Assembly: GCA_042091695.1 (NCBI GenBank)
Contig: JBELHA010000002.1
Location: forward strand, 18,260-82,259
Length of the DNA: 64,000 nucleotides
DNA from: Flavicella sp.
Lineage (GTDB): Bacteria > Bacteroidota > Bacteroidia > Flavobacteriales > Flavobacteriaceae
Direction of reading: 5' to 3'
In this document: positions 34,803 to 59,903 of the stretch, piece after piece
Layout: the number at the start of each line of letters is the position of its first letter
Position numbering within the stretch: the stretch's first letter is position 1
Notes under the pieces: generated by a model
The model's input: only the letters and a program-made list of their open reading frames with translations
The model's database searches: none
Told to the model about the DNA's origin: nothing
Position numbers and translations under genes: made by a program

Positions 34803-35484
34803 TCAACACAAATTTGTATCCAACTCCTTTGACCGTTTTAAAATGGTCGTCTCCGAGTTTCTCTCTTAATTTTCTGATATGCACGTCGATAGTTCTTCCT
34901 CCCACGACAACTTCATTACCCCATACTTTGTCTAAGATAGTTTCTCTCTTAAACACTTTTTCAGGTTTTGAAGCTAGTAGCGAAAAGAGTTCAAATTCCT
35001 TTCTAGGAAGTACTATTTTTTCCCCATCTTTCATAACCAAATACGCTTCACGGTCTATGGTGATATTACCAATCACAGTTTTGTCTACCTCTTCATTTTT
35101 CTCTTTGACACGACGTAATAAAGATTTTACCTTACTGACAAGTACTTTGGGTTTTACCGGCTTGGTAATATAATCATCTGCCCCGGCGTCAAATCCTGCT
35201 ACCTGAGAGTAGTCTTCACCTCTTGCAGTCAAGAACGATATGATAGTGTTTTCTAAGCCTTTTGTCGCTCTAATTTTTTCACAAGCTTCTATGCCATCCA
35301 TTTCAGGCATCATAATATCTAATAATATCAGATGAGGTTTGTGTTTGATTGCTTCTTCAATAGCCAACACTCCATTACTAGCGGTGAATATTTTATAACC
35401 TTCGTTTTTCAAATTGTATCCAACAATTTCTAAAATATCTGGTTCGTCATCTACTAATAAAATCTTTATATCGCTCGTATTCAT
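34792..35484 (-). CDS. phoB: OmpR/PhoB-family response regulator, PhoB/PhoP-like
   Basis: ILLVDDE; LDIMMP (phosphoacceptor Asp); FLTAR; GADDYITKP; winged-helix KEFEL...R..ILDKVWG...RTIDVHIRKLREK. Confidence 0.8.
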   Translation of the reverse strand: MNTSDIKILLVDDEPDILEIVGYNLKNEGYKIFTASNGVLAIEEAIKHKPHLILLDIMMPEMDGIEACEKIRATKGLENTIISFLTARGEDYSQVAGFDAGADDYITKPVKPKVLVSKVKSLLRRVKEKNEEVDKTVIGNITIDREAYLVMKDGEKIVLPRKEFELFSLLASKPEKVFKRETILDKVWGNEVVVGGRTIDVHIRKLREKLGDDHFKTVKGVGYKFVLNEN

Positions 35485-35507: not shown

Positions 35508-35515
35508 CAAATCTA
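35508..35515 (-). promoter_or_regulatory. -7 promoter element for the response regulator/kinase operon
   Basis: TAGATTTG on the minus strand (CAAATCTA on +), ending 23 nt before the ATG. Confidence 0.6.
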
Positions 35516-35573
35516 GTAATTTCACAAGAGATGTTTGTTTCTTTTACAATGATTTAATCTTTCCCTGTAAAGT

Positions 35574-35640
35574 TAACAATTAATTTATATTGAAATAAAC
35601 TAAAGGTAACTTAGTTCGTGCGTTGTTTGACGATTTTTGC
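35574..35640 (+). promoter_or_regulatory. Putative Pho-box-type promoter of the TonB receptor
   Basis: TAACA/TTATA/TAAAC/TAACT at 35574, 35585, 35596, 35607 (11-bp pitch); GATTTTTGC starts 25 bp after the last core. Confidence 0.6.
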
Positions 35641-35661
35641 AGCTTGTAAATCAATCGAATT

Positions 35662-38430
35662 ATGAAGAATATTTTAAGTGCATTTTTGTTAGTAGTTTCC
35701 TTTTCTGTTTTTGCTCAAGAGAAAGCTGTTGTTTCAGGTAAAGTATCTGATAAAGAGATGAATAACGAATCTTTGCCATTTGCGAATGTATTTGTAAAAG
35801 GAACAACTGTTGGTACTACTACAGATTTTGATGGAAATTATACTTTGTATGTAAGCGAAGGTCCTGCAACTCTTGTTTTTAGTTTCGTTGGCTATGCAAC
35901 TATTGAAGTCCCTATGACTTTCGAAGCGGGTCAAAATTATACGATTAGTAAAGTTTTGGGTGCAAGTGAAGGTATTACTATGGATGAGGTTTTGGTGAAA
36001 GCTCAAGTTTCTCGTGAAAAAGAGACAGCTCTTTTGGCAGAACAAAAAAAAGCGGTTGTAATCAAGGAAAGTATTGGTGCTCAAAGACTTGCGAAGGTAG
36101 GTGTTTCTAATGCTGCTGGAGCAACAACAAAAATAGCAGGTGTTACAAAAAGTGAAAGTTCCTCTGCTGTCTTTATTAGAGGTTTAGGGGATCGTTACTT
36201 GTCAACAACTTTAAATGGTTTGCCAGTTCCTTCTGATGATGTTGAAAATAAAAATATAAATCTCAATTTATTTACAACTAGTATTATTAAAAATGTTGCT
36301 GTTTCAAAGACTTATTCTGCAACAGGTTATTCAGACCAAGCTTCGGGAACAGTTAATGTTGTTTCAAAAACATACACGAAAGATTTTTTTAAAATGAGTT
36401 TTTCTTCTGGGATGAATTCAAATTTATTTGGAACTGATTTTAGAGTTAGTGAAAATAACAGTGATTTAAAATTTGGTTTCTTCAACCGTAATGGTCCTGT
36501 AGCTGAAGGTATTCTTGGACAAGGTTGGGATACGCATTCAAAAGAAGTAATTCCTAACTTTAGTATGTCATTTACTGGAGGTAAAAAGTTTGTTTTATTT
36601 GATCGTGATTTTAATTTTTTTGGAACTATATCACATAATGCTTCTTCTGAATATCAATCAGGTATTTTTAAAAGTTTTAGAAATAACGTTGTAAACAATG
36701 ATTTCTCAGACACTGAAGTTTTTAGAGTGAAATCTAACACAACAGCTATGATAAATCTTGGTTCTAGAATAAGTGATGCTAGCAAGATCAATCTTACTTC
36801 TCTTTTTGTAAATAAAGCTAGTGATAATTTATTTGAAGCTGGAAGAAATGGTTTAGGTGAAGTTCGTGATCAAAGACCTCCTAGTCCAACTACAACTGAT
36901 GAATATGAAGATTTAGGTGCTTTCATTAGAGATCAAAACGTCAAACAGACATCTATGTTTGTCAACCAAATTTTGGGAGATCATCGTCTGTCAGATACTA
37001 ATAAATTGAAATGGGCATTAGGTTATAATGTTGTGTCATCTGAAGAGCCTAACAGGATTCGAAATCAAGTGACTATCTTAACACCAAGTACAGATGTTGA
37101 GATAATTAATGTTGGAGGGTTTGATCAACGAAAATCTTTTCAAACTGTCGAAGATGCTGAGCTTAATGCATACGTTCAGGATGAATTTGATTTTTCAGAT
37201 TATGATGTAGAGTCAATTTTTAAGTTGAATGTAGGGTTAAATTTTAGAAATAAATCTAGAGCTTTTGACTCTCAATTCATTGGTGCTAAGATTGTGAGGC
37301 CATTTATTGGATTTACAGTTTCTTCCGTGGACAACCTATCTGATACTTTCACACAAGAAAATTTAGACCGAGGCGTTTTTAAAATAGCTGAACGTTCTCC
37401 TGATGCATATGATGCGAATTTAGTTGCCTCAGCTGCTTATTTTGATATTGTGTTTTCTAAAGATAACTTTTCAGGTAATTTCGGTTTGCGATACGAGTTT
37501 GATCAAATTAATGTTGATTGGAATGTATCAAACTATGTTGGTCGTGTTGGTTCCACATCAAGAGAATACCACAATCTACTTCCAAGTTTAAATTTGAAGT
37601 ATGAATTAAATGAAACTAATTTTTTAAGGTTTGCAACAAGTATAACGACTACTTTGCCAGAATTTAAGGAACTTTCTCCATTTGCGTATGTTGCCCCTAA
37701 CGGTCGTGTTAGTTTAGGTAATCCTGATCTTGAAAAATCGGACAACTATAATTTTGATTTAAAATGGGAATTTTTTCCATCAGAAGGAGAGCTTTTTTCT
37801 TTAACTACGTTTTATAAGCTTATTAAGAATCCAATTAACTCTGCTATGACAAGAGGGTCAACAGGATACTTTACTTATGGAAATACAGGTGAAAAATCTA
37901 ATATTTATGGGCTTGAATTAGAGGGAAGATTTAATATATATGATACAAATGCTTCAAAGTTATCTACTAATTTCAATCTTACAAGAATGTGGTTTAGTCA
38001 AGACTTATTACCAGAATTTCAATACAATGGAAAAGTTGAGTCTGCTCTTCAAGGTGCCTCAGATTTTATTTTAAATTCTTCTCTAAGTTTTACAACCAAA
38101 AGTGTAGGAAAGTCCTTTACATCGACCTTGTCGGCTAACTTTTCATCTGATAAGATCGCGGTATTAGGTTCTCCTGAAGATTTTGATAATAGTTTACAGA
38201 ATTACAATAACGAAATAATCGAAGAGGGATTCTGGAATGTTGATTTTGTTCTGAGCCAAGAACTATCAGAAAGATTAAAAATAAAATTCATTGGTAGAAA
38301 TTTATTGAATCCAGATATCAACCAATCTCAATATGTGAGATATGTAATTAACACACCTGAGACAAAAGAAATTGTTCGTTCCTATAAGAAAGGGGTGCAG
38401 TTAAGTTTAGGACTATCTTACTCTTTCTAG
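35662..38430 (+). CDS. TonB-dependent receptor with CarboxypepD_reg-like N-domain (putatively phosphate-regulated)
   Basis: LPFANVFVKGTT.GTTTDFDGNY; plug FIRGLGDRYLSTTLNGLPVPS; GNP.L..SDNYNFDLKWEFFP; C-terminal SYSF. Confidence 0.9.
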   Translation: MKNILSAFLLVVSFSVFAQEKAVVSGKVSDKEMNNESLPFANVFVKGTTVGTTTDFDGNYTLYVSEGPATLVFSFVGYATIEVPMTFEAGQNYTISKVLGASEGITMDEVLVKAQVSREKETALLAEQKKAVVIKESIGAQRLAKVGVSNAAGATTKIAGVTKSESSSAVFIRGLGDRYLSTTLNGLPVPSDDVENKNINLNLFTTSIIKNVAVSKTYSATGYSDQASGTVNVVSKTYTKDFFKMSFSSGMNSNLFGTDFRVSENNSDLKFGFFNRNGPVAEGILGQGWDTHSKEVIPNFSMSFTGGKKFVLFDRDFNFFGTISHNASSEYQSGIFKSFRNNVVNNDFSDTEVFRVKSNTTAMINLGSRISDASKINLTSLFVNKASDNLFEAGRNGLGEVRDQRPPSPTTTDEYEDLGAFIRDQNVKQTSMFVNQILGDHRLSDTNKLKWALGYNVVSSEEPNRIRNQVTILTPSTDVEIINVGGFDQRKSFQTVEDAELNAYVQDEFDFSDYDVESIFKLNVGLNFRNKSRAFDSQFIGAKIVRPFIGFTVSSVDNLSDTFTQENLDRGVFKIAERSPDAYDANLVASAAYFDIVFSKDNFSGNFGLRYEFDQINVDWNVSNYVGRVGSTSREYHNLLPSLNLKYELNETNFLRFATSITTTLPEFKELSPFAYVAPNGRVSLGNPDLEKSDNYNFDLKWEFFPSEGELFSLTTFYKLIKNPINSAMTRGSTGYFTYGNTGEKSNIYGLELEGRFNIYDTNASKLSTNFNLTRMWFSQDLLPEFQYNGKVESALQGASDFILNSSLSFTTKSVGKSFTSTLSANFSSDKIAVLGSPEDFDNSLQNYNNEIIEEGFWNVDFVLSQELSERLKIKFIGRNLLNPDINQSQYVRYVINTPETKEIVRSYKKGVQLSLGLSYSF

Positions 38431-38456
38431 CGTTTAACTATTTATTAATATCCATT

Positions 38457-38488
38457 AAACCTGTATATGTCTCATATACAGGTTTTTT
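38457..38488 (+). terminator. Rho-independent terminator after the TonB receptor
   Basis: AAACCTGTATATG-TCT-CATATACAGGTTT followed by T tail. Confidence 0.85.
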
Positions 38489-38524
38489 ACGTTTAAAATC
38501 TTATTCTAAAAACGATGTTTTTTA

Positions 38525-38580
38525 TAACCTTGTTTTAACATTGACATAATGTCATTTTTGAGATGTTTCTGCATATTTGC
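38525..38580 (+). promoter_or_regulatory. Putative Pho-box-type promoter of the lipoprotein
   Basis: TAACC/TAACA/TAATG at 38525, 38536, 38547; CATATTTGC starts 25 bp after the last core. Confidence 0.65.
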
Positions 38581-38612
38581 ATAAAAATTTATATACTTAA
38601 TACTATTTTACA

Positions 38613-40565
38613 ATGAAAAAATTTGCATTTAAAACTTTGGCTATCGTGTCGGTTTTCGCTTCAACTCTATTTGTTAGTTGTTCACAAAATGATGATGATG
38701 GTGGATCTGACATCGTAACTCCTGGACAAGAAGTTTTGTCAGGTGATTTAACAGTAAACACAACTTTAGACGCTTCTATTGCATACAGGTTAGAAGGTGC
38801 TTTACGTGTTCAAAATGGAGTAACACTTACAATTCCTGCTGGAACTACAATTACAGCTGATGCTGCTGCAGCTGGAGCTGATGCAACAGAAGTATATATT
38901 GCGATTTTGCAAGGTGCCAAGATAGATGTTCAAGGGGTTCCTTCAAACCCTGTAATTATGACTTCAACAGATGGTGAGCCAGGTGACTGGGGTGGTTTGA
39001 CAATTTGTGGTTATGCTTCCTCTACTGCAGGTACTGATGTAAAGGCAGAGGTTGGGAACTTTAACTATGGTGGTTCTAACGATTCAGATAATTCAGGTTC
39101 TATCAAGAACTTAGTTGTCAGAGGTACTGGTGCTCAGATTGATTCTGAATCTCAATACAATGGTATTTCTTTTTACTCTGTAGGTTCTGAAACAGTTGTT
39201 GAAAATATTGCTGTTATTGATGGTGCTGATGATGGAGTTGAGTTTTACGGAGGTTCAGTTTCTGTTAAAAACTTATACCTTGAAAATAACCAAGATGATT
39301 CAATTGATTGGACTGAAGGTTGGAACGGAACTGTTGAGAATGCATATGTTGCTCATACAATTGCTGGTTTTTCTACTGTAGTAGAGGGTGATAAAGATAA
39401 TAACAATCCTAAGTTTATCAACTTAACTGCTGTTTCTTCTGTTGGTGGTACTGCATTGCAATTCAAGAAAGAATCTGGTGCTACTATTACAGGATTGTCC
39501 CTGTCAGGTTATTCTAAGAATATCGATATGAAAGATGGTGGAGCCTTGTCTAATGTTCAGATTGCAGGAGAAGATGCTCAAGTTGGTTTTTCATATGCTG
39601 CTCCTGCTACTGTAGACCCATCTGACTGGGAATTTGTTACTGCAATTTCTACTGCTGTTGTTTTGAATGGTGATGTTGAATCAGATGTTACTTTAGATGC
39701 TGCTTTATCTTACAACCTTACAGGTGCTTATATTGTAAAGTCAGGTGCAACTTTGACAATTCCTGCAGGAACTAAGATTACTGCTGAAGCTGGTGGAACT
39801 GAAGTTTACATAGCTGTATTGCAAGGAGGTAAAATTGACATTCAAGGTACTGCTGATAATCCAGTTGTAATTTCTTCAGCTAATGGATCACCATCTGATT
39901 GGGGTGGATTGACTATCTGTGGATATGCTACTTCAACTGCTGGAGTTGATGTTAAAGCAGAAGTAGGTAACTTTAACTATGGTGGTTCTAACGATACTGA
40001 TGATTCAGGATCAATTAAATACTTAGTTATCAAAGGAACAGGAGCACAAATTGATTCAGAGTCTCAATACAATGGTATTTCTTTTTACTCTGTAGGTTCT
40101 GAAACAGTTGTTGAAAATATTGCAGTAATCGACGGAGCGGATGACGGTGTTGAGTTTTACGGTGGTTCAGTTTCTGTAAAGAATTTATATTTGGAAAACA
40201 ATAACGATGATTCAATCGACTGGACAGAAGGTTGGAATGGCGGTGTAGATAATGCCTATGTTTCTCATACAATTGCTGGGTTCTCTACAGTATTAGAAGG
40301 TGATAAAGATAACAATAATCCTACTTTTACGAATTTGACTGCTGTATCTACAGTAGGTGGAACTGCATTACAATTCAAAAAAGAGTCTGGTGCAACAATT
40401 ACAGGATTGTCCCTGTCAGGTTATTCTAAGAATATCGATATGAAAGACGGAGGTGCTTTGTCAAATGTAAAAATTGAAGGTGCTGATGCGGATACTTCTG
40501 CAGACTACGATGCTGCTGCTACTGTTGATGTTTCAACTTGGTCTTGGATCTCTGCTACTTTATAG
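38613..40565 (+). CDS. Outer-membrane lipoprotein made of two tandem ~300-aa acidic beta-helix-like domains
   Basis: Lipobox LFVSC; each half carries G.WGGLTICG, DDGVEFYGGSV and DDSIDWTEGW.G. Confidence 0.8.
   Translation: MKKFAFKTLAIVSVFASTLFVSCSQNDDDGGSDIVTPGQEVLSGDLTVNTTLDASIAYRLEGALRVQNGVTLTIPAGTTITADAAAAGADATEVYIAILQGAKIDVQGVPSNPVIMTSTDGEPGDWGGLTICGYASSTAGTDVKAEVGNFNYGGSNDSDNSGSIKNLVVRGTGAQIDSESQYNGISFYSVGSETVVENIAVIDGADDGVEFYGGSVSVKNLYLENNQDDSIDWTEGWNGTVENAYVAHTIAGFSTVVEGDKDNNNPKFINLTAVSSVGGTALQFKKESGATITGLSLSGYSKNIDMKDGGALSNVQIAGEDAQVGFSYAAPATVDPSDWEFVTAISTAVVLNGDVESDVTLDAALSYNLTGAYIVKSGATLTIPAGTKITAEAGGTEVYIAVLQGGKIDIQGTADNPVVISSANGSPSDWGGLTICGYATSTAGVDVKAEVGNFNYGGSNDTDDSGSIKYLVIKGTGAQIDSESQYNGISFYSVGSETVVENIAVIDGADDGVEFYGGSVSVKNLYLENNNDDSIDWTEGWNGGVDNAYVSHTIAGFSTVLEGDKDNNNPTFTNLTAVSTVGGTALQFKKESGATITGLSLSGYSKNIDMKDGGALSNVKIEGADADTSADYDAAATVDVSTWSWISATL
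38730..40520 (+). repeat. Intragenic tandem duplication, 912-bp offset (outer bounds approximate)
   Basis: Identical tracts 39150-39211 = 40062-40123 (62 bp) and 39486-39535 = 40398-40447 (50 bp). Confidence 0.92.
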
Positions 40566-40588
40566 TACAAAAACATATAAATTATAGT

Positions 40589-40618
40589 AAAGGTCACCTT
40601 CGGGTGACCTTTTTTTTT
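40589..40618 (+). terminator. Rho-independent terminator with C(UUCG)G tetraloop
   Basis: AAAGGTCACC-TTCG-GGTGACCTTT followed by a T run. Confidence 0.93.
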
Positions 40619-40932
40619 GCTTTAGTGTAACCAGTAAATAACATACAAGAGAATTATAAATTGTATTTATTATGTGTATATAGGGATATTCAGAATTTTT
40701 AAAATTCAAGTTTAGCTATTCTCAATCGTTTATTAATTCTCTTATTTATTTGTCACTAAAGACTGTGTTTTGTCATTTTTTTTGTTGCTTTAGTGGTTTT
40801 TCGTTTGGTTATTAGCGGTTTAGCTTCGTGTTGGTACTATCTGTGTTATTATTTGAGCTATTTATAGCTCAACTTAGGGTGTTGATTTAGTTTTTTTGTA
40901 ATTCAAATATTTTTTAATTCAAGAAAACTCTT

Positions 40933-43900
40933 ATGAATAAAATTTCACTACTTAGTTTGTTGGGCTTTTTTCTGTTTACTTTGTCAGTAAATAGTCAAAC
41001 ACTTCCACAAGATTTAGAATTGACCTGTACTACAGGATATACCCAAACTGGTGTTTTTGAAGATGATTTCGAATACCTATCTGGAGATGCAATTAAAGCC
41101 GCAGGTTGGTCGGGAGACATCAGTCAAAAAAACGCTCCTTATAGACCAGGTAATGGTAAATGGGGTATATCTTTTGGTGCCCATCCAAATACATCATATA
41201 AAGAAAGTGCTACTGCAGGAACTGGGCCAGATGAGTCCTATGATGGAAACTATTTCTTGATGTTCGAGGCTAATGGTAGTAATAATGAAGCAGAAATTAT
41301 AAGTCCATCAATTGATTTATCATCCGCGTCTTTTGTGGATTCAGATGCTTTATTGGAGTTCAAAATGTTTGCCTTTGGTAGAGATATGGGGAAGCTTGAG
41401 GTGTTTGCCTCTAATAATAAAAACAGTTTCACAGGGGATGCTTTGTTTGTCCATGAAGGTGCCCACCAACAAACAAGTACTGTGGCATCATCCCCTTGGG
41501 TGAATGTTCGCGTAAGCTTGAAAGATTTTGTGGGAGGGTCAGTGTTTATTAAATTAAAATATAATGCTCTCGAGGCTGATACGGCCAATCTTGGAGATAT
41601 GTGTATAGATGGACTAAAAGTATTAGCTTGTGTCGATACTACAGTTTGTTTGGCTGGACCAGTTTCGTTTGAAAATGAAACTATCTCTTCAGTTGATGTG
41701 ACTTATTATCCAAGAGTTGGTGAGACAAAATGGGAGTACTTGCATCAAAAAGCAGGTTTGCCTGCACCTCTAGAAAGTGATTCAGGTATTGTTGAGGATG
41801 GTGTATATGATATTACGATTCAGAACTTAGACCATACTACTTCATACGATGTGTATCTTCGTTCTTATTGTGAATCTATTGGAACGGTTAGTGATTGGAG
41901 TTCTCCGCAATCATTTACAACTCCTATTTCTTATACCAACACTGTAACATGTGGAGAAGATTATAGATCTAGTTTCTGTTACAGTACAATAAATACCGAT
42001 GATGCAAAAACAGAAACCTATACTTTCGTTTCTAGTGATGCTGCTAATGGTGGTGCTATAAGTCTTTTTATCAATGAAGGAAGGTTGGCTGATAATTCTT
42101 TTACAAATAATGACCCAGTGATTCTTGTTACGGATGGTAATGGTACAGTTTTGTATAATGGTAATGGGGTAAGAGAAAGAAAGTATTATTCGCTTAAGGG
42201 GATGTCTTTTTATTCCTCTACAGGTACGATTACATTTCAATTAGAAAATTTAGACACAGATGCTTCTTGTGCAAATAATGATGATTTTGATCAGTTGAAG
42301 CCTATAGATTATACGATTAAATGTTTGGCTTGCGATGCGCCTCCAGTAGTGGATTATAAGTTACACTTCCCGGAAGATTGTGTTACATCTAGCGAATATT
42401 ATGTAGATGTAGAAGTGAAAAATATGAACGGTGCTTCTAATATTTACTTTACCAACGATTACAATAATGTTTCAAAGGAGAGTAGTTCTTTAGGTGTTAC
42501 AAGGGTAGGACCGTTTCCTTTCAATAAGGAGGTAGAAGTATATGTTGCATCTAACAGTGTCGATTCAGGTTGTGTTACACAGCGTATGTTCAATATAGAT
42601 ACCTGTCCTCCATCAAATGATGACATTGAAAATGCTATAGAGTTATCAATATCGCCTTATGGTTCAACTTCATCAGAAATCGATTGGAAATATGCTTCGC
42701 TAGAACATGCAACTGCTTCTGAGGGGGCTTCAATTCCAGTTCCTTCTTGTAACGCAGTTGGGGCTACCAATGATATTTGGTTTAAGATTACGGCACAACA
42801 CCCATTGTATACTTTTGCTCCTTATGTAAGACAAAATTCGAAAGAGGGTATGTATGGAAGTGCTAAAGATTATATTGACCATGTCATGTACGAAAAACTT
42901 CCTGATGGTAGTTTAAAAGAGTTGTTTTGTTACCAAAGTTTTTCTGACTTTGCAACTACAACACCTAGTACAGTAACTCCTGTATTGACAATTGGGCATG
43001 AATATTATTTCAGGGTGTTTTCTCAATCTGATGATTTCACTGATGTAGATATGCGTTTTACCTTATTTGATGCATCTTCGAAATTGCCAGGTACCTGTAA
43101 TGGGGGCGAAGCTCTTTGTTTTGATGCTGAAGGTGTTGCCTACTCAACTCCTATGATCAATTTCCCAAACCGATTGGTACCGAATACTAGCTGTTCACTC
43201 GAATGGATGGCCAATACATCATGGCCTACTTTTGAGGTTGCTGAAGACGGAGTGCTTGAATTTGACTTAGAAATGGTCAATATTGCAACGGATCCAATTG
43301 ATGTTGCTTTGTATGGTCCTTTTACAGATCAAGATGAATATTGTTCTGAAATCTACCAACACAGAGCTATCGACTGTTCTGACAGTTCAGCAGCTGTGGA
43401 TAGATTATCCGTACCCAATGCAAAAAAAGGAGAAAAGTATGCCTTCTTAATTGTAAACCGTAGTGGTGAAAGTGAATTATTGAAATTTACTCAGACCAAT
43501 ATGGGTGAAGATGGCGCGGCTACATTGGCAGGTTTTAGTCCAAATGTACCTCAGATTTCTCCAGACCCTGTTTGTTCATCGAACAGTACTGAAATGGTTG
43601 CTTTGTCTGACTATGATGCCTCTTTAAAAGATGGAGTGGATTCTTATACTGTAAGTTACTATGCTACAGAAGCGCTAGAAACAGAAATAACAGAGGTTCA
43701 AGTAAATGAAGGAACAGCAACAAAGGTATATGCTCAAGTAATTAGTGAATATGGTTGTACTTCTTCTACATCATTTGATTTGTATATGACGACACCTCCG
43801 TTAGTTAATACGATAGTGCCTACAATTGATTGTTCAATTATGAATTTCGACCTTACGAGTTTAGTCGATGAAATTACAGGAGGTCAATCAGGATTAGAAG

Positions 43901-44886
43901 TTCAGTTTTTTGTAACTCAAGACGCTGCTGATTTAGGGGAAAACCCAATTGACACTAATTTTATAAATGAAGGAGTGTCTACCCAGGTATATGCTAGAGT
44001 ACAATTTAGTCAATACAATTATTGCTATGCAACTACTGCCGTTACTTTGGACTTTAAAGTAGCTCCGTTTGCTGAACTTACAGCAGATAAAGCGGTGTTT
44101 GAAGCTTGTGAAGCAGAACCGTTGACACTGTCTCTTGAGAATGCTAATTTTGAAGCTACAGCAGTTGGAATTACTTGGTACAAAGACGGATCAATTATTG
44201 AAAACGAGGACAGTACTTCTTTGATTGTAACTTCTTTTGGTTACTATAAAGCAAAAGTAACTAGTAATGAATCAGCTTGTGAGTTTGAGACCGAACAAGA
44301 ATTAGTGTCACTTAAAGATTGTGCCGCTCCTGTTGGACCTACTGCTCCTGGTGAATTACAGGTTACTGAGGTTTCTGATACTTCTGCAACTGCAACCTGG
44401 ACTGCTTCTACTGATGAAGATGGTGTGGCTGAATACAAACTCTATTTAAACGATGAGTTGGAGAGTACAATAACAGAACTTACTTATGCTCTAGAAGGTT
44501 TGTCTGCGAATACTGCTTACACTTTTAAAGTAGTTCCTTACGATGTCAATGGTACAGTAGGGACTTCCTCACAAGTGATTTTTATTACAGAGGCTGCGGA
44601 CGCTGGTGATGGTGACGGTGATGGTTCACTACCATCTGGTGTTACCAATAAAAATTATAACAATGATAAAATAGTGTCAAAAATAGTTACCCTAGCTAAT
44701 CCACTAAGAATAGATGCTAACGGAGTATCTCTAACTGTATTCAACAGAAATGGACAGACTATCATTTCAAGAAGTAACTATAACAACGATTGGAATGCTT
44801 CAGAGTTGTCCTCGGGAACCTATTTTTATGTGATTACCTACAGTGATAATACTACAAAAGCAGGTACCATATTTATTAAAAAGTAA
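40933..44886 (+). CDS. Large T9SS type B (CHU_C-like CTD) secreted adhesin-like protein with MAM, Fn3, CUB-like and Ig-like modules
   Basis: Signal peptide; MAM-like GPDESYDGNYFLMFEA...SPSIDL...MGKLEV...DMCID; Fn3 modules LDHTTSYDVYLRSYC and LSANTAYTFKV; PPSNDD..NAI.L; C-terminal VFNRNG...YNNDWN...LSSGTYFYVI; followed by porP/sprF. Confidence 0.8.
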   Translation: MNKISLLSLLGFFLFTLSVNSQTLPQDLELTCTTGYTQTGVFEDDFEYLSGDAIKAAGWSGDISQKNAPYRPGNGKWGISFGAHPNTSYKESATAGTGPDESYDGNYFLMFEANGSNNEAEIISPSIDLSSASFVDSDALLEFKMFAFGRDMGKLEVFASNNKNSFTGDALFVHEGAHQQTSTVASSPWVNVRVSLKDFVGGSVFIKLKYNALEADTANLGDMCIDGLKVLACVDTTVCLAGPVSFENETISSVDVTYYPRVGETKWEYLHQKAGLPAPLESDSGIVEDGVYDITIQNLDHTTSYDVYLRSYCESIGTVSDWSSPQSFTTPISYTNTVTCGEDYRSSFCYSTINTDDAKTETYTFVSSDAANGGAISLFINEGRLADNSFTNNDPVILVTDGNGTVLYNGNGVRERKYYSLKGMSFYSSTGTITFQLENLDTDASCANNDDFDQLKPIDYTIKCLACDAPPVVDYKLHFPEDCVTSSEYYVDVEVKNMNGASNIYFTNDYNNVSKESSSLGVTRVGPFPFNKEVEVYVASNSVDSGCVTQRMFNIDTCPPSNDDIENAIELSISPYGSTSSEIDWKYASLEHATASEGASIPVPSCNAVGATNDIWFKITAQHPLYTFAPYVRQNSKEGMYGSAKDYIDHVMYEKLPDGSLKELFCYQSFSDFATTTPSTVTPVLTIGHEYYFRVFSQSDDFTDVDMRFTLFDASSKLPGTCNGGEALCFDAEGVAYSTPMINFPNRLVPNTSCSLEWMANTSWPTFEVAEDGVLEFDLEMVNIATDPIDVALYGPFTDQDEYCSEIYQHRAIDCSDSSAAVDRLSVPNAKKGEKYAFLIVNRSGESELLKFTQTNMGEDGAATLAGFSPNVPQISPDPVCSSNSTEMVALSDYDASLKDGVDSYTVSYYATEALETEITEVQVNEGTATKVYAQVISEYGCTSSTSFDLYMTTPPLVNTIVPTIDCSIMNFDLTSLVDEITGGQSGLEVQFFVTQDAADLGENPIDTNFINEGVSTQVYARVQFSQYNYCYATTAVTLDFKVAPFAELTADKAVFEACEAEPLTLSLENANFEATAVGITWYKDGSIIENEDSTSLIVTSFGYYKAKVTSNESACEFETEQELVSLKDCAAPVGPTAPGELQVTEVSDTSATATWTASTDEDGVAEYKLYLNDELESTITELTYALEGLSANTAYTFKVVPYDVNGTVGTSSQVIFITEAADAGDGDGDGSLPSGVTNKNYNNDKIVSKIVTLANPLRIDANGVSLTVFNRNGQTIISRSNYNNDWNASELSSGTYFYVITYSDNTTKAGTIFIKK

Positions 44887-44895
44887 CATACTACA

Positions 44896-45774
44896 ATGAA
44901 GAATTTATATATTTTAATAGCACTTGTTTTTACGATAAAAACAAGTGCTCAAACAGAACCTCAGTACACACAATACATGTACAATATGAGTTTATTAAAC
45001 CCTGCTTATGCAGCCTCTAAAGACTATACTTCTTTGGGTTTCATTTACAGAAATCAATGGGCTGGATTAGAAGGAGCTCCTAAAACTATGAACTTATTTG
45101 GGCAAACTAAGTTTTCAAATAATTTAGGACTTGGCGGTTCTATTATTTCCGATCAAATTGGAACTGAAAACAAAACCTTTATTCAAGTAGATGCTTCATA
45201 TCCATTACAAATTGCGGAGAATCAATTTATCTCTTTAGGATTGAAAGCAGGACTAAGTATGCATTCTATAAACTTGTCAGATATAGATACTTCTTTAGGA
45301 AATACAAACGCAACTTCTCCTACTGTAGGTGTTGGTTTCTTGTATTATAGTTCAAGTTTTTATGTCGGTGCCTCTATTCCTAATGTTTTGGAAACGAAAC
45401 AAACGACAGATACTGGAGAAGAGATCACTATCGAGAACAAAGATTTCTATGCCATGGCAGGATATGTATTTGATTTGAATTCAGTTTTAAAGTTAAAACC
45501 AAATCTTTTAATTAGAGCTACTGGAGAAGATCCAATTACAATCAATATAGGAAGCAACGTTTTAATTCATAACAAGTATGAGTTTGGTATTGGATACAGA
45601 TTAGATGAATCCTTTTCAGGGTTATTTAATATACCTGTTACTTCTAACTTGCGTTTGGGGTATTCTTATGATTTCGTAACTACTTCTATTAGTGATTTTG
45701 CACCAGCATCTCACGAATTTGTTGTTTTGTATAATTTCAACACAACATCTGAGACAGTAAATAGATTTTTCTAA
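44896..45774 (+). CDS. Type IX secretion system membrane protein, PorP/SprF family
   Basis: AQTEPQYTQYMYN...NPAYA; YRNQW.GLEGAPKT; LRLGYSYD; SHEF...Y.F. Confidence 0.93.
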   Translation: MKNLYILIALVFTIKTSAQTEPQYTQYMYNMSLLNPAYAASKDYTSLGFIYRNQWAGLEGAPKTMNLFGQTKFSNNLGLGGSIISDQIGTENKTFIQVDASYPLQIAENQFISLGLKAGLSMHSINLSDIDTSLGNTNATSPTVGVGFLYYSSSFYVGASIPNVLETKQTTDTGEEITIENKDFYAMAGYVFDLNSVLKLKPNLLIRATGEDPITINIGSNVLIHNKYEFGIGYRLDESFSGLFNIPVTSNLRLGYSYDFVTTSISDFAPASHEFVVLYNFNTTSETVNRFF

Positions 45775-45798
45775 CAGTATTGCCTATAAATATTATAT

Positions 45799-48700
45799 AT
45801 GAGATTTAAATTTAATGTATTAATTATCACTGCAGTGTTTTTTTGCACTAGTAGTTTTGCACAGCAAAATTATTGGTCTAAAGACTTATCTGCAAAGACA
45901 TCTAAGGGAAGCAAAGCTTCCAATTTGGATGCCAATCATTTCGAACTATTCAAACTGAACTTACAGCAGTTTTCGCAGTCTATAGCAAATACGTCCAGTA
46001 GGAGTGCCAAAGGAACTTCTATTCAAAAGAATGCTTTCTTTCCTGACGAAAATGGGCTTATGCAAGAATTCTCTTTGCAAGAAGTTGCTACTTTGTCAGA
46101 TGAATTAGCTACCAAGTACCCAACTATTAAGACTTACTTAGGAAAAAGTACCAATGGAGATGGAACACGAATCCGTCTTACAGTAAGTCACTTGGGAGTG
46201 AATGCTATGATAACGTATTTAAATCGTCCCTCTACATTTTTAAACCCTAAAAATGTCGGTGCTATCAATGACTATATTGTTTTCAATAAAGCAGCAAAAC
46301 TAGAGGAAGAAATTCCTTTCGTTTGTAAAGAAATTGAATCACATTTGTCGGGAGAGCACAAACATAAGTCAGAAGATGTGTACACACATGAATCATCTGC
46401 ACACAAACAAAATTCAGAACAGCAATCACTTACATCACATGCTTCAGAAAACAATGCATTAGAAGGTAAGTTAGTTGAATTGAGAATTGCTATTGCTGCG
46501 ACTGGTGAATATACAAAAAGATGGAGTGATAATGTAGGTGATCGAAGAGACGATGCGTATGCCCAAATTGTTACATCTGTTAACAGACTCAATGAATTGT
46601 ATGAAACAGATCTAGGAATTACATTTCGTTTGATATCTGATAAAAGTATTGTATTCGACAATCCTATTTCAGACCCTTTTGATTCCGATCTTAATTTGGG
46701 GGCTGATCTACAAGAGTTGATGGATGCAACCTATGATTCTGATGATTATGATCTCGGACATTTGTATCATAAAGATGTTCCTAACGGAAACGCTGGATGT
46801 ATCGGTTGTGTTGGAGATAATGGAAAAGCAAGTGCTTTCTCAGCACATAGTTTTACAGGGTCAAACTTTGATACAGACACTTTTGATATTGATTATGTGT
46901 CACATGAAATTGGACACCAATTAGGAGGTCACCATACTTGGGCTTTCGCTCCTGAAGGAACATTTAATAAAGTACAGTTTGAACCAGGTTCAGGGTCTAC
47001 TATTATGGGATATGCTGGTATTACAGGTCCAGATGATGTACAAGGCGACTCAGATCCTTATTTTCATTATGGAAGTATTCGCGAAATAAAAGCCAATATT
47101 GGTGCTAAAGTTGCTAAGTTCACTACTTTTGACAATCCTAATATAGCTCCCGTTGTTGAGGCAGGAGATGATTATAGCATTCCTATAGCTACACCTTTTG
47201 TGTTAACGGGTGCTGCAACAGATGAAAATACAAATGATATTCTTACTTATGCTTGGGAACAAATTGATTTAGGAGTGTCTCATGCAGATAACTTTTCACC
47301 CTTGAAATATTCAGGTCCTGTCTTTCGTTCGCATTTACCAACCACTTCAAACAAAAGATATTTGCCAAATGTTGAAAGAGTAATTCAGAACGAATTACTG
47401 GAGTCAAATCCTATTCTGACTTTTGACAATACATCATGGGAAACACTCTCTAATTTTCCAAGGTCGTATAAATTTGCACTTACGGTTAGAGATAGAAGTT
47501 TTGATGATATAGCTTCTGGAATTGGCCGTGTTTCTTACGATTCTATTCAAGTTAATGTTATAGATACAGACGGTCCTTTCGCTGTAAAGTCTCAAGCTTC
47601 AGAGCTCACGATGGCCGAGGGAAGTATTCATACGATTAAATGGGATGTGGTAGGTACTGATAAAGCACCTATCAATGTGAGTAAAGTAAATATTTTATTG
47701 TCTACTGACGGTGGTTATAATTACGACCATGTTTTAGCAGAAAATGTTGATAACGACGGAACTCATGAGGTTTTTATACCTGTTTCAGAGGCAGAAAACA
47801 CCACTGAAACTACCAACGCTAGAATCAAGGTTGAAGCTGTTGGTAATGTTTTTTATGCGATTAATCAGTCCCCATTAACTATTGAAAAATCAGATTTTAT
47901 TTTTGTTCCTGATTCAGCCATCAATCAAGTTTGTTTAGCAGAACCATTTAAAGAAGCAGTTTATAATTTTAAATACATACCTAATGATGGTTTTTCTGAC
48001 GAGGTTGTTTTTGATTATGAAAACCGACCAGATGGCGCTCAAATCATCTTTGATCCTACAAGCGCAATTGAAGCTACAGATGTTTCTGTGATCGTAAAGT
48101 TACGTCCTTCTTTTCCAACTAAATCGTACAATTTTGACGTGACTGCTACTTCAAATATTGATACATCAAAAAAATACACGCAGAATTTGAGTTTGAAAGC
48201 GTATGATTCAGAAATTGAACCAATACAATTGTCTTCTCCTGCAAATAACACTTTAGGAGTAAACATCAATACGTATATGACTTGGGTTACCGACGCAAAT
48301 GTTGAAAACTATTTTGTAGAGGTTTCAGAAGATGCTGATTTTACTTCTGTGGTTAGTAGTGGTTCTGTGTCTGTACCTCCATACAAGGCTGAGAACTTAG
48401 TCTCTTTAGAAACCTACTATTGGAGAGTTTCAGCTAGCAATGAATGTTCAGGTACATCTTCTGTTTCTGAGGTGTTTTCTTTTTCAGTTCAAAATATTGC
48501 ATGCAATGTATTTAAAACAGATGTTGACCCTATACCAATTCCAGATCGTGTAATTGAGTTTTTTATTGGAGACCATGCGGTTACAGCCGATGTTGGTTCT
48601 CCTCAAACAATTTCTGAAAAAGATGCTGTAATCATTGAAGATTTAAATGTTACGGTCAATATAGAGCATACTGAATCAACGGATTTATATATAATGCTTG

Positions 48701-49917
48701 TGTCTCCTTATGGAAATAGAATTGATTTGTCTGAATTGTTACTTTTAAATGAAGGAGACAATGGAGCAAACTATACAAATACTGTATTTGATGACGATTC
48801 TGAAACTATTATATTTGATTATGGTCCTTATGGCCCACCGTTTACTGGAACTTTCAAGCCTATTGACGATTTGTCTATCGTAAATGGATTGTCTTCAGAG
48901 GGAACTTGGGAATTGAGAGTCTGGGATCCTGTAGAATACGATTCAGGAAAAATTATTGATTGGTCTATGGAAATATGTGGTGCTGCTGGTGATTTCGATG
49001 CAGATACTATATATGACAATTTTGACAACTGTTACAATGTAATAAATCCAGATCAATTAGATTTCGACAATGACGGTATTGGAGATCTCTGTGACGATGA
49101 TATTGACAATGACGGTGTACCTAATGAATTAGACATGTGTAACAACAGTCCACTAAATACAGTAGTTGATTTAAGAGGTTGTGCTGTGTTTGATATACCT
49201 GTTGAGAATTTTGTAATAAAAACTTTGAGTGAAACTTGTGCTTCGAACAACGATGGTAAAATTGTTTTGACATCTGCTCAAGCATTCGATTTTACTGCAA
49301 CTTTAACAGGCCCATCAACTACTATACTATCTAAAGAATTTACAGATACGCTAACTTTTGATGGTTTAGACTCGGGTGAGTACACACTTTCTTTAACCGA
49401 GAAAAACGAAGAAGGTTATGAATCTCGTTTTACAATTAATATATCCGAACCTCAAGATTTTGTAGTGATTCCAAGTATTGCTAAAAACGCGACTAACCTA
49501 GACCTTGAATTAGAAGGAGGAAGACGTTATTTGATCAATTTAAATGGTCATACATCGATGACAGCAGGTACTTCTATCTCTTTGCCACTAAAAGCTGGTA
49601 CAAACCACTTAAGAGTAACTACAGACAAGGATTGTCAAGGAGTTTTCGAGGAAACTATTGAAATTGATTCTTATTTTAATGTGTCACCTAATCCGATTCC
49701 TAATGGACAAAAACTTCGTATCGAGACGAACCTAAAGGAGCAAACGGAGGCAAATGCATTCTTGTATTCTAGTTTAGGTACATTGGTGCTAGAAGCACCA
49801 CTAAAAGTTGAAAATGGAACCTGTACCCTAGATGTTTCACATTTAGCTACAGGCGTATACATCTTAAACTTACGTACAGAAAATGAATTGAGAACATTTA
49901 AAGTCCTTAAAAATTAA
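45799..49917 (+). CDS. T9SS type A secreted reprolysin-like (M12B-like) zinc metalloprotease with P-domain and thrombospondin type-3-like repeats
   Basis: HEIGHQLGGHH (HEXXHXXGXXH, 46903-46935); Met-turn EPGSGSTIMGY; P-domain GTF.P...L....G.SS.GTWEL; DxDxD repeats at 48991-49140; CTD SPNP...LATGVYIL. Confidence 0.88.
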   Translation: MRFKFNVLIITAVFFCTSSFAQQNYWSKDLSAKTSKGSKASNLDANHFELFKLNLQQFSQSIANTSSRSAKGTSIQKNAFFPDENGLMQEFSLQEVATLSDELATKYPTIKTYLGKSTNGDGTRIRLTVSHLGVNAMITYLNRPSTFLNPKNVGAINDYIVFNKAAKLEEEIPFVCKEIESHLSGEHKHKSEDVYTHESSAHKQNSEQQSLTSHASENNALEGKLVELRIAIAATGEYTKRWSDNVGDRRDDAYAQIVTSVNRLNELYETDLGITFRLISDKSIVFDNPISDPFDSDLNLGADLQELMDATYDSDDYDLGHLYHKDVPNGNAGCIGCVGDNGKASAFSAHSFTGSNFDTDTFDIDYVSHEIGHQLGGHHTWAFAPEGTFNKVQFEPGSGSTIMGYAGITGPDDVQGDSDPYFHYGSIREIKANIGAKVAKFTTFDNPNIAPVVEAGDDYSIPIATPFVLTGAATDENTNDILTYAWEQIDLGVSHADNFSPLKYSGPVFRSHLPTTSNKRYLPNVERVIQNELLESNPILTFDNTSWETLSNFPRSYKFALTVRDRSFDDIASGIGRVSYDSIQVNVIDTDGPFAVKSQASELTMAEGSIHTIKWDVVGTDKAPINVSKVNILLSTDGGYNYDHVLAENVDNDGTHEVFIPVSEAENTTETTNARIKVEAVGNVFYAINQSPLTIEKSDFIFVPDSAINQVCLAEPFKEAVYNFKYIPNDGFSDEVVFDYENRPDGAQIIFDPTSAIEATDVSVIVKLRPSFPTKSYNFDVTATSNIDTSKKYTQNLSLKAYDSEIEPIQLSSPANNTLGVNINTYMTWVTDANVENYFVEVSEDADFTSVVSSGSVSVPPYKAENLVSLETYYWRVSASNECSGTSSVSEVFSFSVQNIACNVFKTDVDPIPIPDRVIEFFIGDHAVTADVGSPQTISEKDAVIIEDLNVTVNIEHTESTDLYIMLVSPYGNRIDLSELLLLNEGDNGANYTNTVFDDDSETIIFDYGPYGPPFTGTFKPIDDLSIVNGLSSEGTWELRVWDPVEYDSGKIIDWSMEICGAAGDFDADTIYDNFDNCYNVINPDQLDFDNDGIGDLCDDDIDNDGVPNELDMCNNSPLNTVVDLRGCAVFDIPVENFVIKTLSETCASNNDGKIVLTSAQAFDFTATLTGPSTTILSKEFTDTLTFDGLDSGEYTLSLTEKNEEGYESRFTINISEPQDFVVIPSIAKNATNLDLELEGGRRYLINLNGHTSMTAGTSISLPLKAGTNHLRVTTDKDCQGVFEETIEIDSYFNVSPNPIPNGQKLRIETNLKEQTEANAFLYSSLGTLVLEAPLKVENGTCTLDVSHLATGVYILNLRTENELRTFKVLKN

Positions 49918-49921
49918 AAAC

Positions 49922-50911
49922 ATGAAAAAAATATTTTTATTATTTTGTTTTTTCGCAGTTATTTCCTGTGGAAGTGATGGTCCAGAACAACCAATAACAG
50001 GAGGAAATAACCTCTCGGAGGTTAAGAACCTACAAATTATAGAGCTGACTCAAAATTCAGTTTCTTTCAGCTGGGAGGCTCCGACAGATGTAGAAAACGT
50101 CTCCTATTATGAAGTTTATTTGGACGCTGTATTACAAGAGTCTATTACTAATTTGACCTATACTTTTGAAAATTTGTCATCAAATACGGCATATACTTTC
50201 AAAATAATTCCAGTAGACCTACAAGATAGCGAAGGGAAGGAAAGAGAGATTACTTTTACAACCATGGAAGGTTCAGGTCCAATCAGTGACAAAATGACGA
50301 ATCTTACCTATCCTTTGAACAATGAAAGTTGTAACGAAGGGGTAACGAATGCTGATGATGCTTCGAAATCTGATATTACGTTTGAGTGGGAATCTAGTGC
50401 AGATGCAATATCTTATGAGTTAGTTTTAAATGATGTGACAAATAAAACAATTCAAAGGTATACAAGTACTGAGAAAAGTTTAGCTGCTACAATTTATAAA
50501 GGGGCCACGTATTCGTGGTTTATCATTACTAGCTTTACTTCGCAAGATAACACAGGCGCAACCACAACCACTACCGAGGTCAGTGATACTCACTATTTTT
50601 ATAGTTTGGGTGAGGCATTTGAATCTTATGTTCCATATCCATCACGTCTTACTTCTCCTGCAAACTCCTCTGTCCTTAAGAATAAGGAAACAGTACAGTT
50701 GAGTTGGAGTGGTTCACATCCTGATGGTGACATTGTATCCTATGAAGTTTATTTTGGTACTTCTACAGTACCTGAATTATACGAGACGACATCGTCTCAA
50801 ACTCTTACAGTTTCTTTGGAGCCAAATACGACTTATTATTGGAGTATTGTAGCAATCGATGCAAACGGGAACTCTTCAACTTCTCAGTTGTTTGGTTTTA
50901 TATCGGAGTAA
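49922..50911 (+). CDS. Fibronectin type III / SusE-like lipoprotein
   Basis: Lipobox AVISC; Fn3 motif LSSNTAYTFKI; LEPNTTYYWSIVAID. Confidence 0.75.
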   Translation: MKKIFLLFCFFAVISCGSDGPEQPITGGNNLSEVKNLQIIELTQNSVSFSWEAPTDVENVSYYEVYLDAVLQESITNLTYTFENLSSNTAYTFKIIPVDLQDSEGKEREITFTTMEGSGPISDKMTNLTYPLNNESCNEGVTNADDASKSDITFEWESSADAISYELVLNDVTNKTIQRYTSTEKSLAATIYKGATYSWFIITSFTSQDNTGATTTTTEVSDTHYFYSLGEAFESYVPYPSRLTSPANSSVLKNKETVQLSWSGSHPDGDIVSYEVYFGTSTVPELYETTSSQTLTVSLEPNTTYYWSIVAIDANGNSSTSQLFGFISE

Positions 50912-50930
50912 GCATACGTAATAAAGTAAC

Positions 50931-50962
50931 AAAAAGAGGTTCTTCACAGGACCTCTTTTTTT
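50931..50962 (+). terminator. Rho-independent terminator closing the T9SS module
   Basis: AAAAAGAGGT...ACCTCTTTTT followed by T tail. Confidence 0.85.
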
Positions 50963-50989
50963 GTACCCTGAAGAATCTATTAAATTTAT

Positions 50990-51034
50990 TAACATTTACA
51001 TAACATAGCAGCCTTGATTAATTAGGATATTTGC
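50990..51034 (+). promoter_or_regulatory. Putative Pho-box-type promoter of the phosphate transporter
   Basis: Perfect TAACA-N6-TAACA (50990, 51001); GATATTTGC starts 25 bp after the last core. Confidence 0.7.
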
Positions 51035-53421: not shown

Positions 53422-54153
53422 ATGAACCTACCCATAGCCAAAGAAAATATCCTTTTTTTAGATATTGAATCCGTACCAGAATTTGCACATTTTGACGCGT
53501 TGTCTCCAACGATGCAAGAGCTATTTGCTATAAAAACAAGTTACCAAAGAAACACAAAAGGTGGTGATGAGATTCCTGTAGAAGAATTCTATGAAAAAGC
53601 AGGTATTTGGGCAGAATTTGGAAAGATTATTTGTATTTCTGTAGGCTTTTTTGTCAAAAGTAAAACTGAGCGTTCTTTTAGAACAAAGTCTTTTTATGGA
53701 ACAGATGAGGCGCAAATACTATTAGAATTTAAATCTCTGTTGGAGGGACATTTTAGTGCTTTAAAATATATGTTATGTGGTCATAATGCCAAAGAATTTG
53801 ATTTCCCATTCATAGCTAGAAGGATGATTGTACATCAGATTTCACTTCCAGAAAAATTGAATCTTTTTGGTAAAAAACCATGGGAAATTCCTCATTTGGA
53901 TACCATGGAGCTTTGGAAATTTGGTGATTACAAACACTATACATCGTTGCAGCTTTTATCCGAAATTTTGAAAATACCATCCCCTAAAGACGATATTGAT
54001 GGCTCACAAGTAGGAACTATTTATTACAAAGAAAAAAATCTACAAAGAATTGCTGATTATTGTGAAAAAGATACCGTGTCAGTTGCGCAATTGTATTTGA
54101 GATACAATAACGAGCCTCTTTTAACTACTGAAGAACTAGTGCGTGCGATCTAA
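53422..54153 (+). CDS. DEDD 3'-5' exonuclease (DnaQ/PolB-exonuclease-like)
   Basis: FLDIE (ExoI); GHNAKEFDFPFI (ExoII); HLDTMELW; YCEKD (ExoIII). Confidence 0.88.
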   Translation: MNLPIAKENILFLDIESVPEFAHFDALSPTMQELFAIKTSYQRNTKGGDEIPVEEFYEKAGIWAEFGKIICISVGFFVKSKTERSFRTKSFYGTDEAQILLEFKSLLEGHFSALKYMLCGHNAKEFDFPFIARRMIVHQISLPEKLNLFGKKPWEIPHLDTMELWKFGDYKHYTSLQLLSEILKIPSPKDDIDGSQVGTIYYKEKNLQRIADYCEKDTVSVAQLYLRYNNEPLLTTEELVRAI

Positions 54154-59755: not shown

Positions 59756-59895
59756 AGTCAAAATGTTAACTATTGTTAATTTAGTTAACATTAAATTTAC
59801 ATTAAAGGGTTAATGTATAGTTTATGTTAAGTGAGGGGGGTGTTTTTTTTTTGAATAGTTAAGATTCTCTTAAAGTAGTTAAAGAGATGTTAATG

Positions 59896-59903
59896 TAATT
59901 TTG
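59896..59903 (+). promoter_or_regulatory. -7 promoter element for the TonB receptor, preceded by GTTAA repeats
   Basis: TAATTTTG(C); eight GTTAA copies between 59765 and 59893. Confidence 0.6.

Follow-up and report, generated by a model that had tools for sequence, protein, structure and literature searches.

TAAC(A) direct repeats at an 11-bp pitch as a predicted Pho box at a phosphate-acquisition locus of Flavicella sp.

The locus and its repeat arrays

The window considered here is a stretch of 64,000 nucleotides of Flavicella sp. DNA (contig JBELHA010000002.1). In three of its promoters, TAAC-type pentamers are repeated at a pitch of exactly 11 bp, and the last of them begins 25 bp ahead of an element that resembles the -7 element of Bacteroidota promoters. 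The gene of an OmpR/PhoB-family response regulator lies beside the first array, and the repeats are probably its binding sites, i.e., a Pho box. The arrays and the elements downstream of them are as follows.

35573-35617, plus strand: array of promoter 1 (box B), four 11-bp units, TAACA 35574, TTATA 35585, TAAAC 35596 and TAACT 35607
35632, plus strand: -7-like element of promoter 1, GATTTTTGC, at 35607 + 25
35632-35639, plus strand: degenerate -7 element of the TonB-receptor promoter, GATTTTTG
38524-38557, plus strand: array of promoter 2, three 11-bp units, TAACC 38525, TAACA 38536 and TAATG 38547
38572, plus strand: -7-like element of promoter 2, CATATTTGC, at 38547 + 25
38572-38579, plus strand: degenerate -7 element of the lipoprotein promoter, CATATTTG
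50989-51011, plus strand: array of promoter 3, two 11-bp units, TAACA 50990 and TAACA 51001
51026, plus strand: -7-like element of promoter 3, GATATTTGC, at 51001 + 25
51026-51033, plus strand: degenerate -7 element of the PHO4 promoter, GATATTTG

The initial annotation had listed nine pentamers at this pitch, and all nine are read from the sequence where it placed them; four are exact TAACA, two more contain TAAC and three are weak (TTATA, TAAAC, TAATG). The distance of 25 bp from the last core to the -7 element (35632, 38572, 51026) is also as it had described. The primary sigma factor of Bacteroidota reads promoters with TTTG at -33 and TAnnTTTG at -7. Against TAnnTTTG, the elements GATTTTTG, CATATTTG and GATATTTG agree at seven of eight positions and lack the first T, the base found there being G, C and G, respectively. 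In the upstream regions of this genome nAnnTTTG begins with T in 71% of cases, with G in 6.9% and with C in 6.5%, so that the first base at the three promoters is unusual. No TTTG was found at the -33 position of the three window promoters; the unit at -25 appears to cover, roughly, the place where it would be expected.

Genes of the locus

The genes downstream of these promoters, the two-component pair and the intervening features are listed below.

33762-34802, minus strand: sensor histidine kinase, PhoR-like, short (346 amino acids), HisKA and HATPase_c
34792-35484, minus strand: OmpR/PhoB-family response regulator, candidate PhoB, Response_reg and Trans_reg_C
35662-38430, plus strand: TonB-dependent receptor, divergent from the regulator, CarbopepD_reg_2, Plug and OMP_b-brl_3
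38457-38485, plus strand: terminator-like hairpin 3' of the receptor gene, 13-pair stem followed by a T run
38613-40565, plus strand: conserved surface lipoprotein, 650 amino acids, PF28492
40933-50911: type IX secretion system (T9SS) cargo/PorP module, 10 kb
50931-50960, plus strand: terminator-like hairpin 5' of the PHO4 promoter, -15.2 kcal/mol, z = -4.75, followed by a T run
51068-53341, plus strand: PHO4-family inorganic phosphate transporter with a PhoU-like C-terminal part, PF01384 and weak PF01895

The two top family matches of the regulator are TIGR02154 PhoB and the Bacteroides PhoB model NF053854, with scores of 207.5 bits against an equivalog cut-off of 296.2 and 201.8 bits against 270. 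The top NCBIfam matches of the kinase are PnpS and PhoR, every one of them under its curated cut-off. The architecture of the regulator is PhoB-like: a receiver is joined to a winged-helix Trans_reg_C domain, a histidine kinase partner is encoded alongside, and Pho genes adjoin. Its neighbourhood is syntenic with the receptor/lipoprotein cluster of Flavobacterium johnsoniae that responds to inorganic phosphate (Pi), and a single ortholog is present in 37 of 41 relatives. Only two proteins with the OmpR-family Trans_reg_C domain are encoded in the genome (2.73 Mb, 36% G+C, 92% complete; genes called throughout by a simple longest-open-reading-frame heuristic), namely this regulator and an RprY-like one whose neighbours are unrelated housekeeping-type genes.

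The TonB-dependent receptor has the same three-domain Pfam set as Fjoh_0545, which adjoins phoB in F. johnsoniae, and the lipoprotein corresponds in position to the F. johnsoniae lipoprotein FII (Fjoh_0546). Homologs of the lipoprotein occur in Polaribacter, Tenacibaculum, Flavicella and similar genera, a distribution suggesting a Flavobacteriaceae species of marine habitat; a search of solved structures gave no informative match to it. It is internally duplicated, residues 1-330 aligning with 340-650 and with the same homolog regions. PhoU-like sequence was found in the genome only within the PHO4 protein, and neither a stand-alone PhoU nor a strong PstS was found in the genus; the PHO4-PhoU fusion therefore looks like the main phosphate transporter of the genus.

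The terminator-like hairpin behind the receptor gene indicates that the lipoprotein has its own promoter, and with the hairpin ahead of promoter 3 the three genes can be taken as separate transcription units. Elsewhere in the genus and the family, the stretch from the lipoprotein gene to PHO4 contains a gene for an OprP-type porin. In this genome and its closest relative the porin gene is replaced by the 10-kb T9SS cargo/PorP module, and no match to Porin_O_P was found in this genome.

Excess of the pattern over chance

In the intergenic part of this genome (311 kb), pairs of TAAC were counted at distances from 5 to 40 bp. The count peaks at exactly 11 bp (36 pairs vs 5-24 at the other distances), and no 11-bp peak of TAAC pairs was seen in coding DNA. 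Compared with 200 dinucleotide-preserving shuffles of the intergenic DNA, the bare pair TAAC-N7-TAAC is modestly enriched, by about 2 standard deviations (36 vs 25.2 +/- 4.9). The relaxed composite pattern TAAC-N7-TAAC-N21-nAnnTTTG, with its register to the -7-like element, occurs at four intergenic sites vs 0.06 +/- 0.23 in the shuffles, none of the 200 reaching four. Occurrence at background frequency in shuffled AT-rich DNA, which the initial annotation had named as a possible refutation, was thus not observed.

A 22-bp weight matrix trained solely on PHO4 promoters of other genomes ranks the PHO4 site of the window first genome-wide, with 23.8 bits. About 19 of its top 25 matches are intergenic, intergenic DNA amounting to 11.5% of the genome. 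Among the intergenic matches, the next TTTG lies preferentially at a distance of 29 (= 25 + 4) or of 40, i.e., one unit more; coding matches have no peak in this distance.

Conservation of the layout among relatives

Comparison of orthologous upstream regions, which had been proposed as a check, showed the layout to be kept in four promoter families (receptor, lipoprotein, PHO4 and porin) while the spacers drift, and a unit at -25 was seen in every one of them. TAAC stands at -36 and -25 from nAnnTT[T/A]G in 19 of 24 upstream regions of PHO4 orthologs. Among 17 aligned PHO4 orthologs from many genera, the -7 element is GATATTTG in 10 and GAAATTTG in 3; the transporters that keep these elements are just 55-80% identical, and the spacers between the elements vary.

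For the receptor, 12 genus orthologs were chosen by the -7 element alone. The slot at -58 is TAACA and the slot at -36 TAAAC-like in all 12, the slot at -47 is TTACA-like in 5, and the slot at -25 is TAAC-like (at least three of four bases) in all 12, with exact TAAC[T/C] in 10. The -7 sequence GAnTTTTGCA[G/C]C is kept in each of the 12, exactly 25 bp past the last unit. Nine lipoprotein promoters of the genus were compared; the slots at -47, -36 and -25 are filled in all of them, the third unit being TAAG, TAAC or TAAT, and 25 bp past this unit lies CATATTTG, CATCTTTG, TTTCTTTG or GTTCTTTG (9/9). The OprP-type porin promoters of relatives have units at -36, -25 and -14 in six of six, followed by the element GTT[C/A]TTTGCAGCGAC.

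The slots occupied by the weak pentamers of the window are thus filled in orthologs by TTACA, TAAAC and TAAG or TAAC, so that the weak pentamers of the initial annotation are conserved weak positions. Pooling of the aligned promoters gave the unit consensus tTAAC(A/c)T, which is partly circular since some sets were chosen on TAAC. Most of its information lies in T, the second A and C of TAAC, and the variants TTTACA and TTCACA are present among the aligned promoters. Of the core TAACA that had been proposed, the first four bases stood up, C being nearly as conserved as T and the second A; position five varies (A in ~57%, C in ~26%).

The -7 element of the Pho-type promoters of the family mostly begins with GA, CA, GT, TT, AC or TC. 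Full TAnnTTTG is found at pstS promoters elsewhere and at three further sites in this genome. A weakened -7 element, which the initial annotation had taken as characteristic of these promoters, is therefore frequent and not defining.

Association with the regulator gene and with phosphate genes

Exact 11-bp TAAC pairs are found within 250 nt of the regulator start codon at 17 of 30 loci, and in 14 of 17 other genera. All of the pairs beside the regulator gene read away from it, none having the opposite orientation, and spacings of 8-14 bp other than 11 gave counts of 0-3.

Among pstS loci sampled phylum-wide, 10 of 30 have co-oriented 11-bp TAAC pairs upstream, and these belong to several Bacteroidota families. 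The controls gave 0-1 for other spacings, 0 for the opposite orientation and 0 for downstream DNA. Several of the pstS-upstream sites comprise three or four successive units, and in one pstS-linked promoter from a different family the last TAAC lies 25 bp ahead of TAGCTTTGCA. As pstS is a textbook Pho gene, the motif is tied to phosphate independently of the window. The immediate upstream DNA of pstS within the order had been considered as a test; it is misleading because many pstS genes sit inside operons, and the phylum-wide locus scan with its controls took its place.

The expression data available for F. johnsoniae concern the orthologous cluster. Upon Pi depletion, its phoBR-linked receptor and lipoprotein FII are raised 8-10 log2-fold, 8 for the receptor Fjoh_0545 and ~10 for the lipoprotein Fjoh_0546 (PMC8115612).

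Proposed mechanism and alternatives

What the sequences show directly is that the pattern is present, exceeds chance, is conserved and is associated with the regulator gene as well as with Pi transporters, porins and pstS. With at least two direct-repeat units at an 11-bp pitch, co-oriented upstream of phosphate-acquisition genes, the arrays are PHO boxes in form. It is likely, and in our judgement with good confidence, that the TAAC(A) units are head-to-tail sites for the phosphorylated regulator encoded at 34792-35484. The initial annotation had read the arrays as the operator and activation geometry of the adjacent Pho-type regulator, and every computational test run has supported this as a prediction.

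In the mechanism proposed, low phosphate would lead the PhoR-like kinase to phosphorylate the regulator, whose dimers would fill two to four neighbouring units. One unit would always begin 25 bp ahead of the -7 element, roughly at the place of the -33 TTTG, and the regulator bound there would recruit RNA polymerase to promoters with a weakened -7 (GA or CA for TA). The TonB receptor, the surface lipoprotein and the PHO4-PhoU transporter would thereby be switched on as three separate units. From the layout we infer binding by the regulator, transcription start sites matching these elements and activation by contact with sigma. Phosphate as the signal is suggested by analogy with the orthologous cluster of another species.

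Several points weigh against this reading. The regulator scores under the curated PhoB cut-offs. The upstream regions of PhoX in relatives have no clear boxes, few genomes of the family carrying PhoX. The relatives are non-independent samples, and the pattern itself had served to choose the aligned sets for PHO4, MoxR and other genera. Strings of the types TAACTTTG and AACATTTG look like -7 elements themselves, so that some weight-matrix matches may be plain promoters. In some genera the arrays beside the regulator gene have no clear 25-bp register. Furthermore, an extra unit (TAACA or TTTACA) is present at -14 in the porin promoters and, in other genera, in those of the receptor and the lipoprotein; the position of the last core at 25 bp, which the initial annotation took as fixed, is thus a rule for the genus and not for the family.

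The last two points bear on an alternative in which the arrays are true PhoB operators and the promoter assignment is wrong, nAnnTTTGCA not being the -7 element or the regulator acting otherwise than by replacing -33; the spacing of 25 bp would then reflect a conserved register that does not involve the proposed sigma contact. A unit at -14 would fall within the proposed promoter spacer, and some arrays beside the regulator gene are ~40 bp or more from any TTTG, both of which fit this alternative. Nevertheless, an 8-mer ending in TTTG(CA) stands at a fixed distance in four promoter families, 28-65 nt ahead of start codons; TAnnTTTG is by far the commonest NNnnTTTG form in the upstream regions of the genome (30%), and sigma-70-type promoters are not enriched in the region. 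The alternative is accordingly unlikely, though it is the least improbable of those considered. A further alternative, in which the arrays bind some other protein (the RprY-like regulator, say, or a factor that belongs to no two-component system) and the PhoB-like gene is nearby by coincidence, would agree with the conserved TAAC pair ahead of a MoxR ATPase operon that has no known phosphate link. It is improbable given that 14 of the 17 other genera have the arrays beside the PhoB-like gene and that they stand upstream of pstS across the phylum, only at 11 bp and only co-oriented. The sole other family member is the RprY-like protein among its unrelated housekeeping-type genes, and 11-bp direct repeats are a hallmark of the OmpR/PhoB family (PMC4415409).

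It is still less probable that something besides phosphate, for example a different nutrient or stress at the envelope, is what regulator and box answer to. The kinase is indeed short and under the PhoR cut-offs, and the genus is without a strong PstS or a stand-alone PhoU, the usual sensing partners of PhoR; the targets, however, comprise pstS and the genes of a PHO4 phosphate transporter and an OprP-type porin, and in F. johnsoniae the orthologous cluster belongs to the loci that respond most strongly to Pi (PMC8115612). That AT-rich intergenic DNA produced the pattern by chance is hardly credible. Three of the nine pentamers are weak and the bare pair is only ~2 standard deviations above the shuffles, but the composite pattern was found four times against an expectation of 0.06, its exact register is kept across genera while the spacers change, and a family-wide scan gave 229 matches vs 130 for the reversed pattern.

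Comparison with known Pho boxes

The element appears to be the same kind of operator as the SphR and PhoP boxes, with a nearly identical core, set within a putative Bacteroidota promoter. The PhoP box of Bacillus subtilis consists of TT(A/T/C)ACA repeats with ~5-bp spacers, along which multiple dimers bind; it serves sigma-A promoters of the -35/-10 type, and sites also lie within coding regions. The unit tTAACAt found here is practically the same as this hexamer, and we know of no description of a fixed 25-bp register to a -7 element for PhoP. In Escherichia coli the proximal unit lies about one helical turn nearer the promoter core than in this genus. The core there is TGTCA, whereas here it is TAAC(A), the promoter is of the Bacteroidota -33/-7 type, and the arrays reach four units.

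A PHO box is generally made of 11-nt direct repeats, on which PhoB-type regulators sit in a head-to-tail arrangement and make contact with sigma (PMC4415409). That of E. coli has two such repeats of CTGTCAT units, 10 bp upstream of the -10 hexamer (PMC4415409; PMC1906773). The arrays of the window resemble it in having 11-bp direct repeats along the direction of transcription, apparently in the place of an upstream promoter element and next to a core promoter predicted to be weak, as well as in targets such as Pi transporters, porins and pstS (PMC4415409; PMC1906773). The cyanobacterial SphR box, CTTAACCT, has 8-bp repeats, three or more in tandem, which 3-bp linkers bring to an 11-bp period (PMC1906773). 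Its TTAAC core is almost identical to that described here, and it shares the 11-bp period, the frequent presence of at least three units and pst among its targets, with phosphatase genes as well (PMC1906773). The fifth and sixth bases are A/T here and CC in cyanobacteria, which belong to another phylum with another sigma and promoter type. Binding by SphR has been established experimentally (PMC1906773), whereas binding to the box described here is predicted.

Within Bacteroidota, the closest counterpart is the phoBR/PUSIV cluster of F. johnsoniae (Fjoh_0541-0549), with PhoR, PhoB, a divergent receptor and a lipoprotein, and with OprP nearby (PMC8115612). It differs from the window genome, in which the 10-kb T9SS module stands at the porin place of relatives. 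Lidbury et al. (2021) dealt with expression only; a Pho box, promoter, motif or binding site is absent from the main text (PMC8115612). The PhoB of Bacteroides fragilis (BF1576; Wakimoto et al. 2013), likewise a Bacteroidota PhoB, bound a fragment carrying the pstC promoter in a gel shift; the fragment of 512 bp was used as such, and no operator sequence was defined (PMC3547664). The window regulator is under the cut-off of the Bacteroides PhoB model (201.8 vs 270 bits). No operator sequence for Pho of Bacteroidota was found in the literature searched, most subscription journals being outside its coverage, so that a Pho box of this kind is apparently, and provisionally, new for Bacteroidota.

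Such a box would be expected from E. coli, Bacillus and cyanobacteria; it fills a gap and overturns nothing. Bacteroidota are major recyclers of organic phosphorus in sea, soil and gut, and to our knowledge their phosphate-starvation genes have so far been identified through expression studies only. A defined box with a fixed -7 register could be used to predict Pho regulons from genomes and metagenome-assembled genomes and to obtain phosphate-inducible promoters for flavobacterial genetics. It would also offer a case for studying an OmpR/PhoB activator at the unusual -33/-7 promoters.

Regulon scan and further candidate members

The scan proposed in the initial annotation for predicting the regulon, TAACA-N6-TAACA-N20-nAnnTTTG, proved too strict. 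Its sole match in the genome is the PHO4 site, and a weight matrix is therefore needed. Exact TAACA-N6-TAACA occurs at eight sites genome-wide, which is not above a rough composition-based estimate of ~20. The relaxed pattern has four matches: PHO4, a MoxR-type ATPase operon, a 53-codon open reading frame (contig C4) and a 201-amino-acid membrane protein (contig C131); it fails to recover the receptor and lipoprotein promoters.

When 61 genomes of the family were scanned, the relaxed pattern was matched 229 times, the reversed-pattern control giving 130. The excess falls into three recurrent classes, namely PHO4, the receptor/lipoprotein cluster and TTAACCAATTATTAACAG...TTTG. The last lies ~50 bp upstream of a MoxR ortholog in eight of eight sampled cases, and this MoxR/Bat-type promoter is conserved in about half of the 61 genera. 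In this genome, the promoter of a MoxR-family AAA ATPase operon on contig C36 (13627-13670), outside the window, has TTAACCAAATTTTAACAG with TTTG at +29.

A wider proposal would be that a single Pho box, tTAACAt at an 11-bp pitch and locked to the -7 element, is used throughout Bacteroidota, and that the regulon of Flavobacteriaceae includes unexpected members. We regard this as possible and rather doubtful. The MoxR/Bat-type ATPase operon is the clearest candidate for such a member; small proteins with a T9SS sorting domain and a PolB-exonuclease-like gene may be others. If the proposal is true, a -7 element that lacks TA would be a readable mark of activator-dependent promoters in Bacteroidota.

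The small proteins are encoded by the regulator-divergent gene in relatives from several genera (L102, L104, L106 and L107), with TAAC arrays upstream. They have ~110 amino acids and comprise little beyond a signal peptide and a T9SS C-terminal sorting domain. A similar gene of 132 amino acids with a strong two-unit box is present in this genome on contig C19 (7196-7718).

The PolB-exonuclease-like gene lies downstream of PHO4 at 53422-54153 and is a possible member of the Pho regulon. Its ortholog in another genus (L016/L101), 67% identical, is transcribed divergently from the regulator gene. Three perfect TAACA units stand upstream of that ortholog, the nearest TTTG being 2 bp off register.

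Other elements of the window

Three further elements of the window are predicted as follows.

35508-35515, minus strand: consensus -7 element of the regulator operon, TAGATTTG, 24 nt ahead of the ATG
35543-35559, plus strand: box A, TTTACAATGATTTAATC, two further units, TTACA 35544 and TAATC 35555
40628-40642, plus strand: TAAC-N7-TAAC pair, candidate site, after the lipoprotein terminator (40589-40612)

The element TAGATTTG probably acts as a promoter element, the sequence CAAAnnTA being kept at the same position in the genus. Box A, which is absent from the site list of the initial annotation, is nearly invariant in the genus as TTTACAATCATTTAAC. It is offset from the phase of box B by 19 bp and overlies the -33 region of the minus-strand promoter of the regulator; it may be an extra operator or an autoregulation element. 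The pair at 40628-40642, at which no TTTG was found at +29, lies 290 bp upstream of the T9SS module, which might form part of this regulon.

For another TonB receptor, encoded at 59935-62493, a TAACA-N6-TTACA pair lies upstream at 59786. In the same upstream region (59786-59903), weak TAAGA and TAAAG units stand at -36 and -25 from the full-consensus element TAATTTTG at 59896. Outside the window, contig C21 (26961-27005) contains four tandem units (AAAAC, TAAC, TAAC, TAAC) at 11 bp, located between two minus-strand genes and inverted relative to both.

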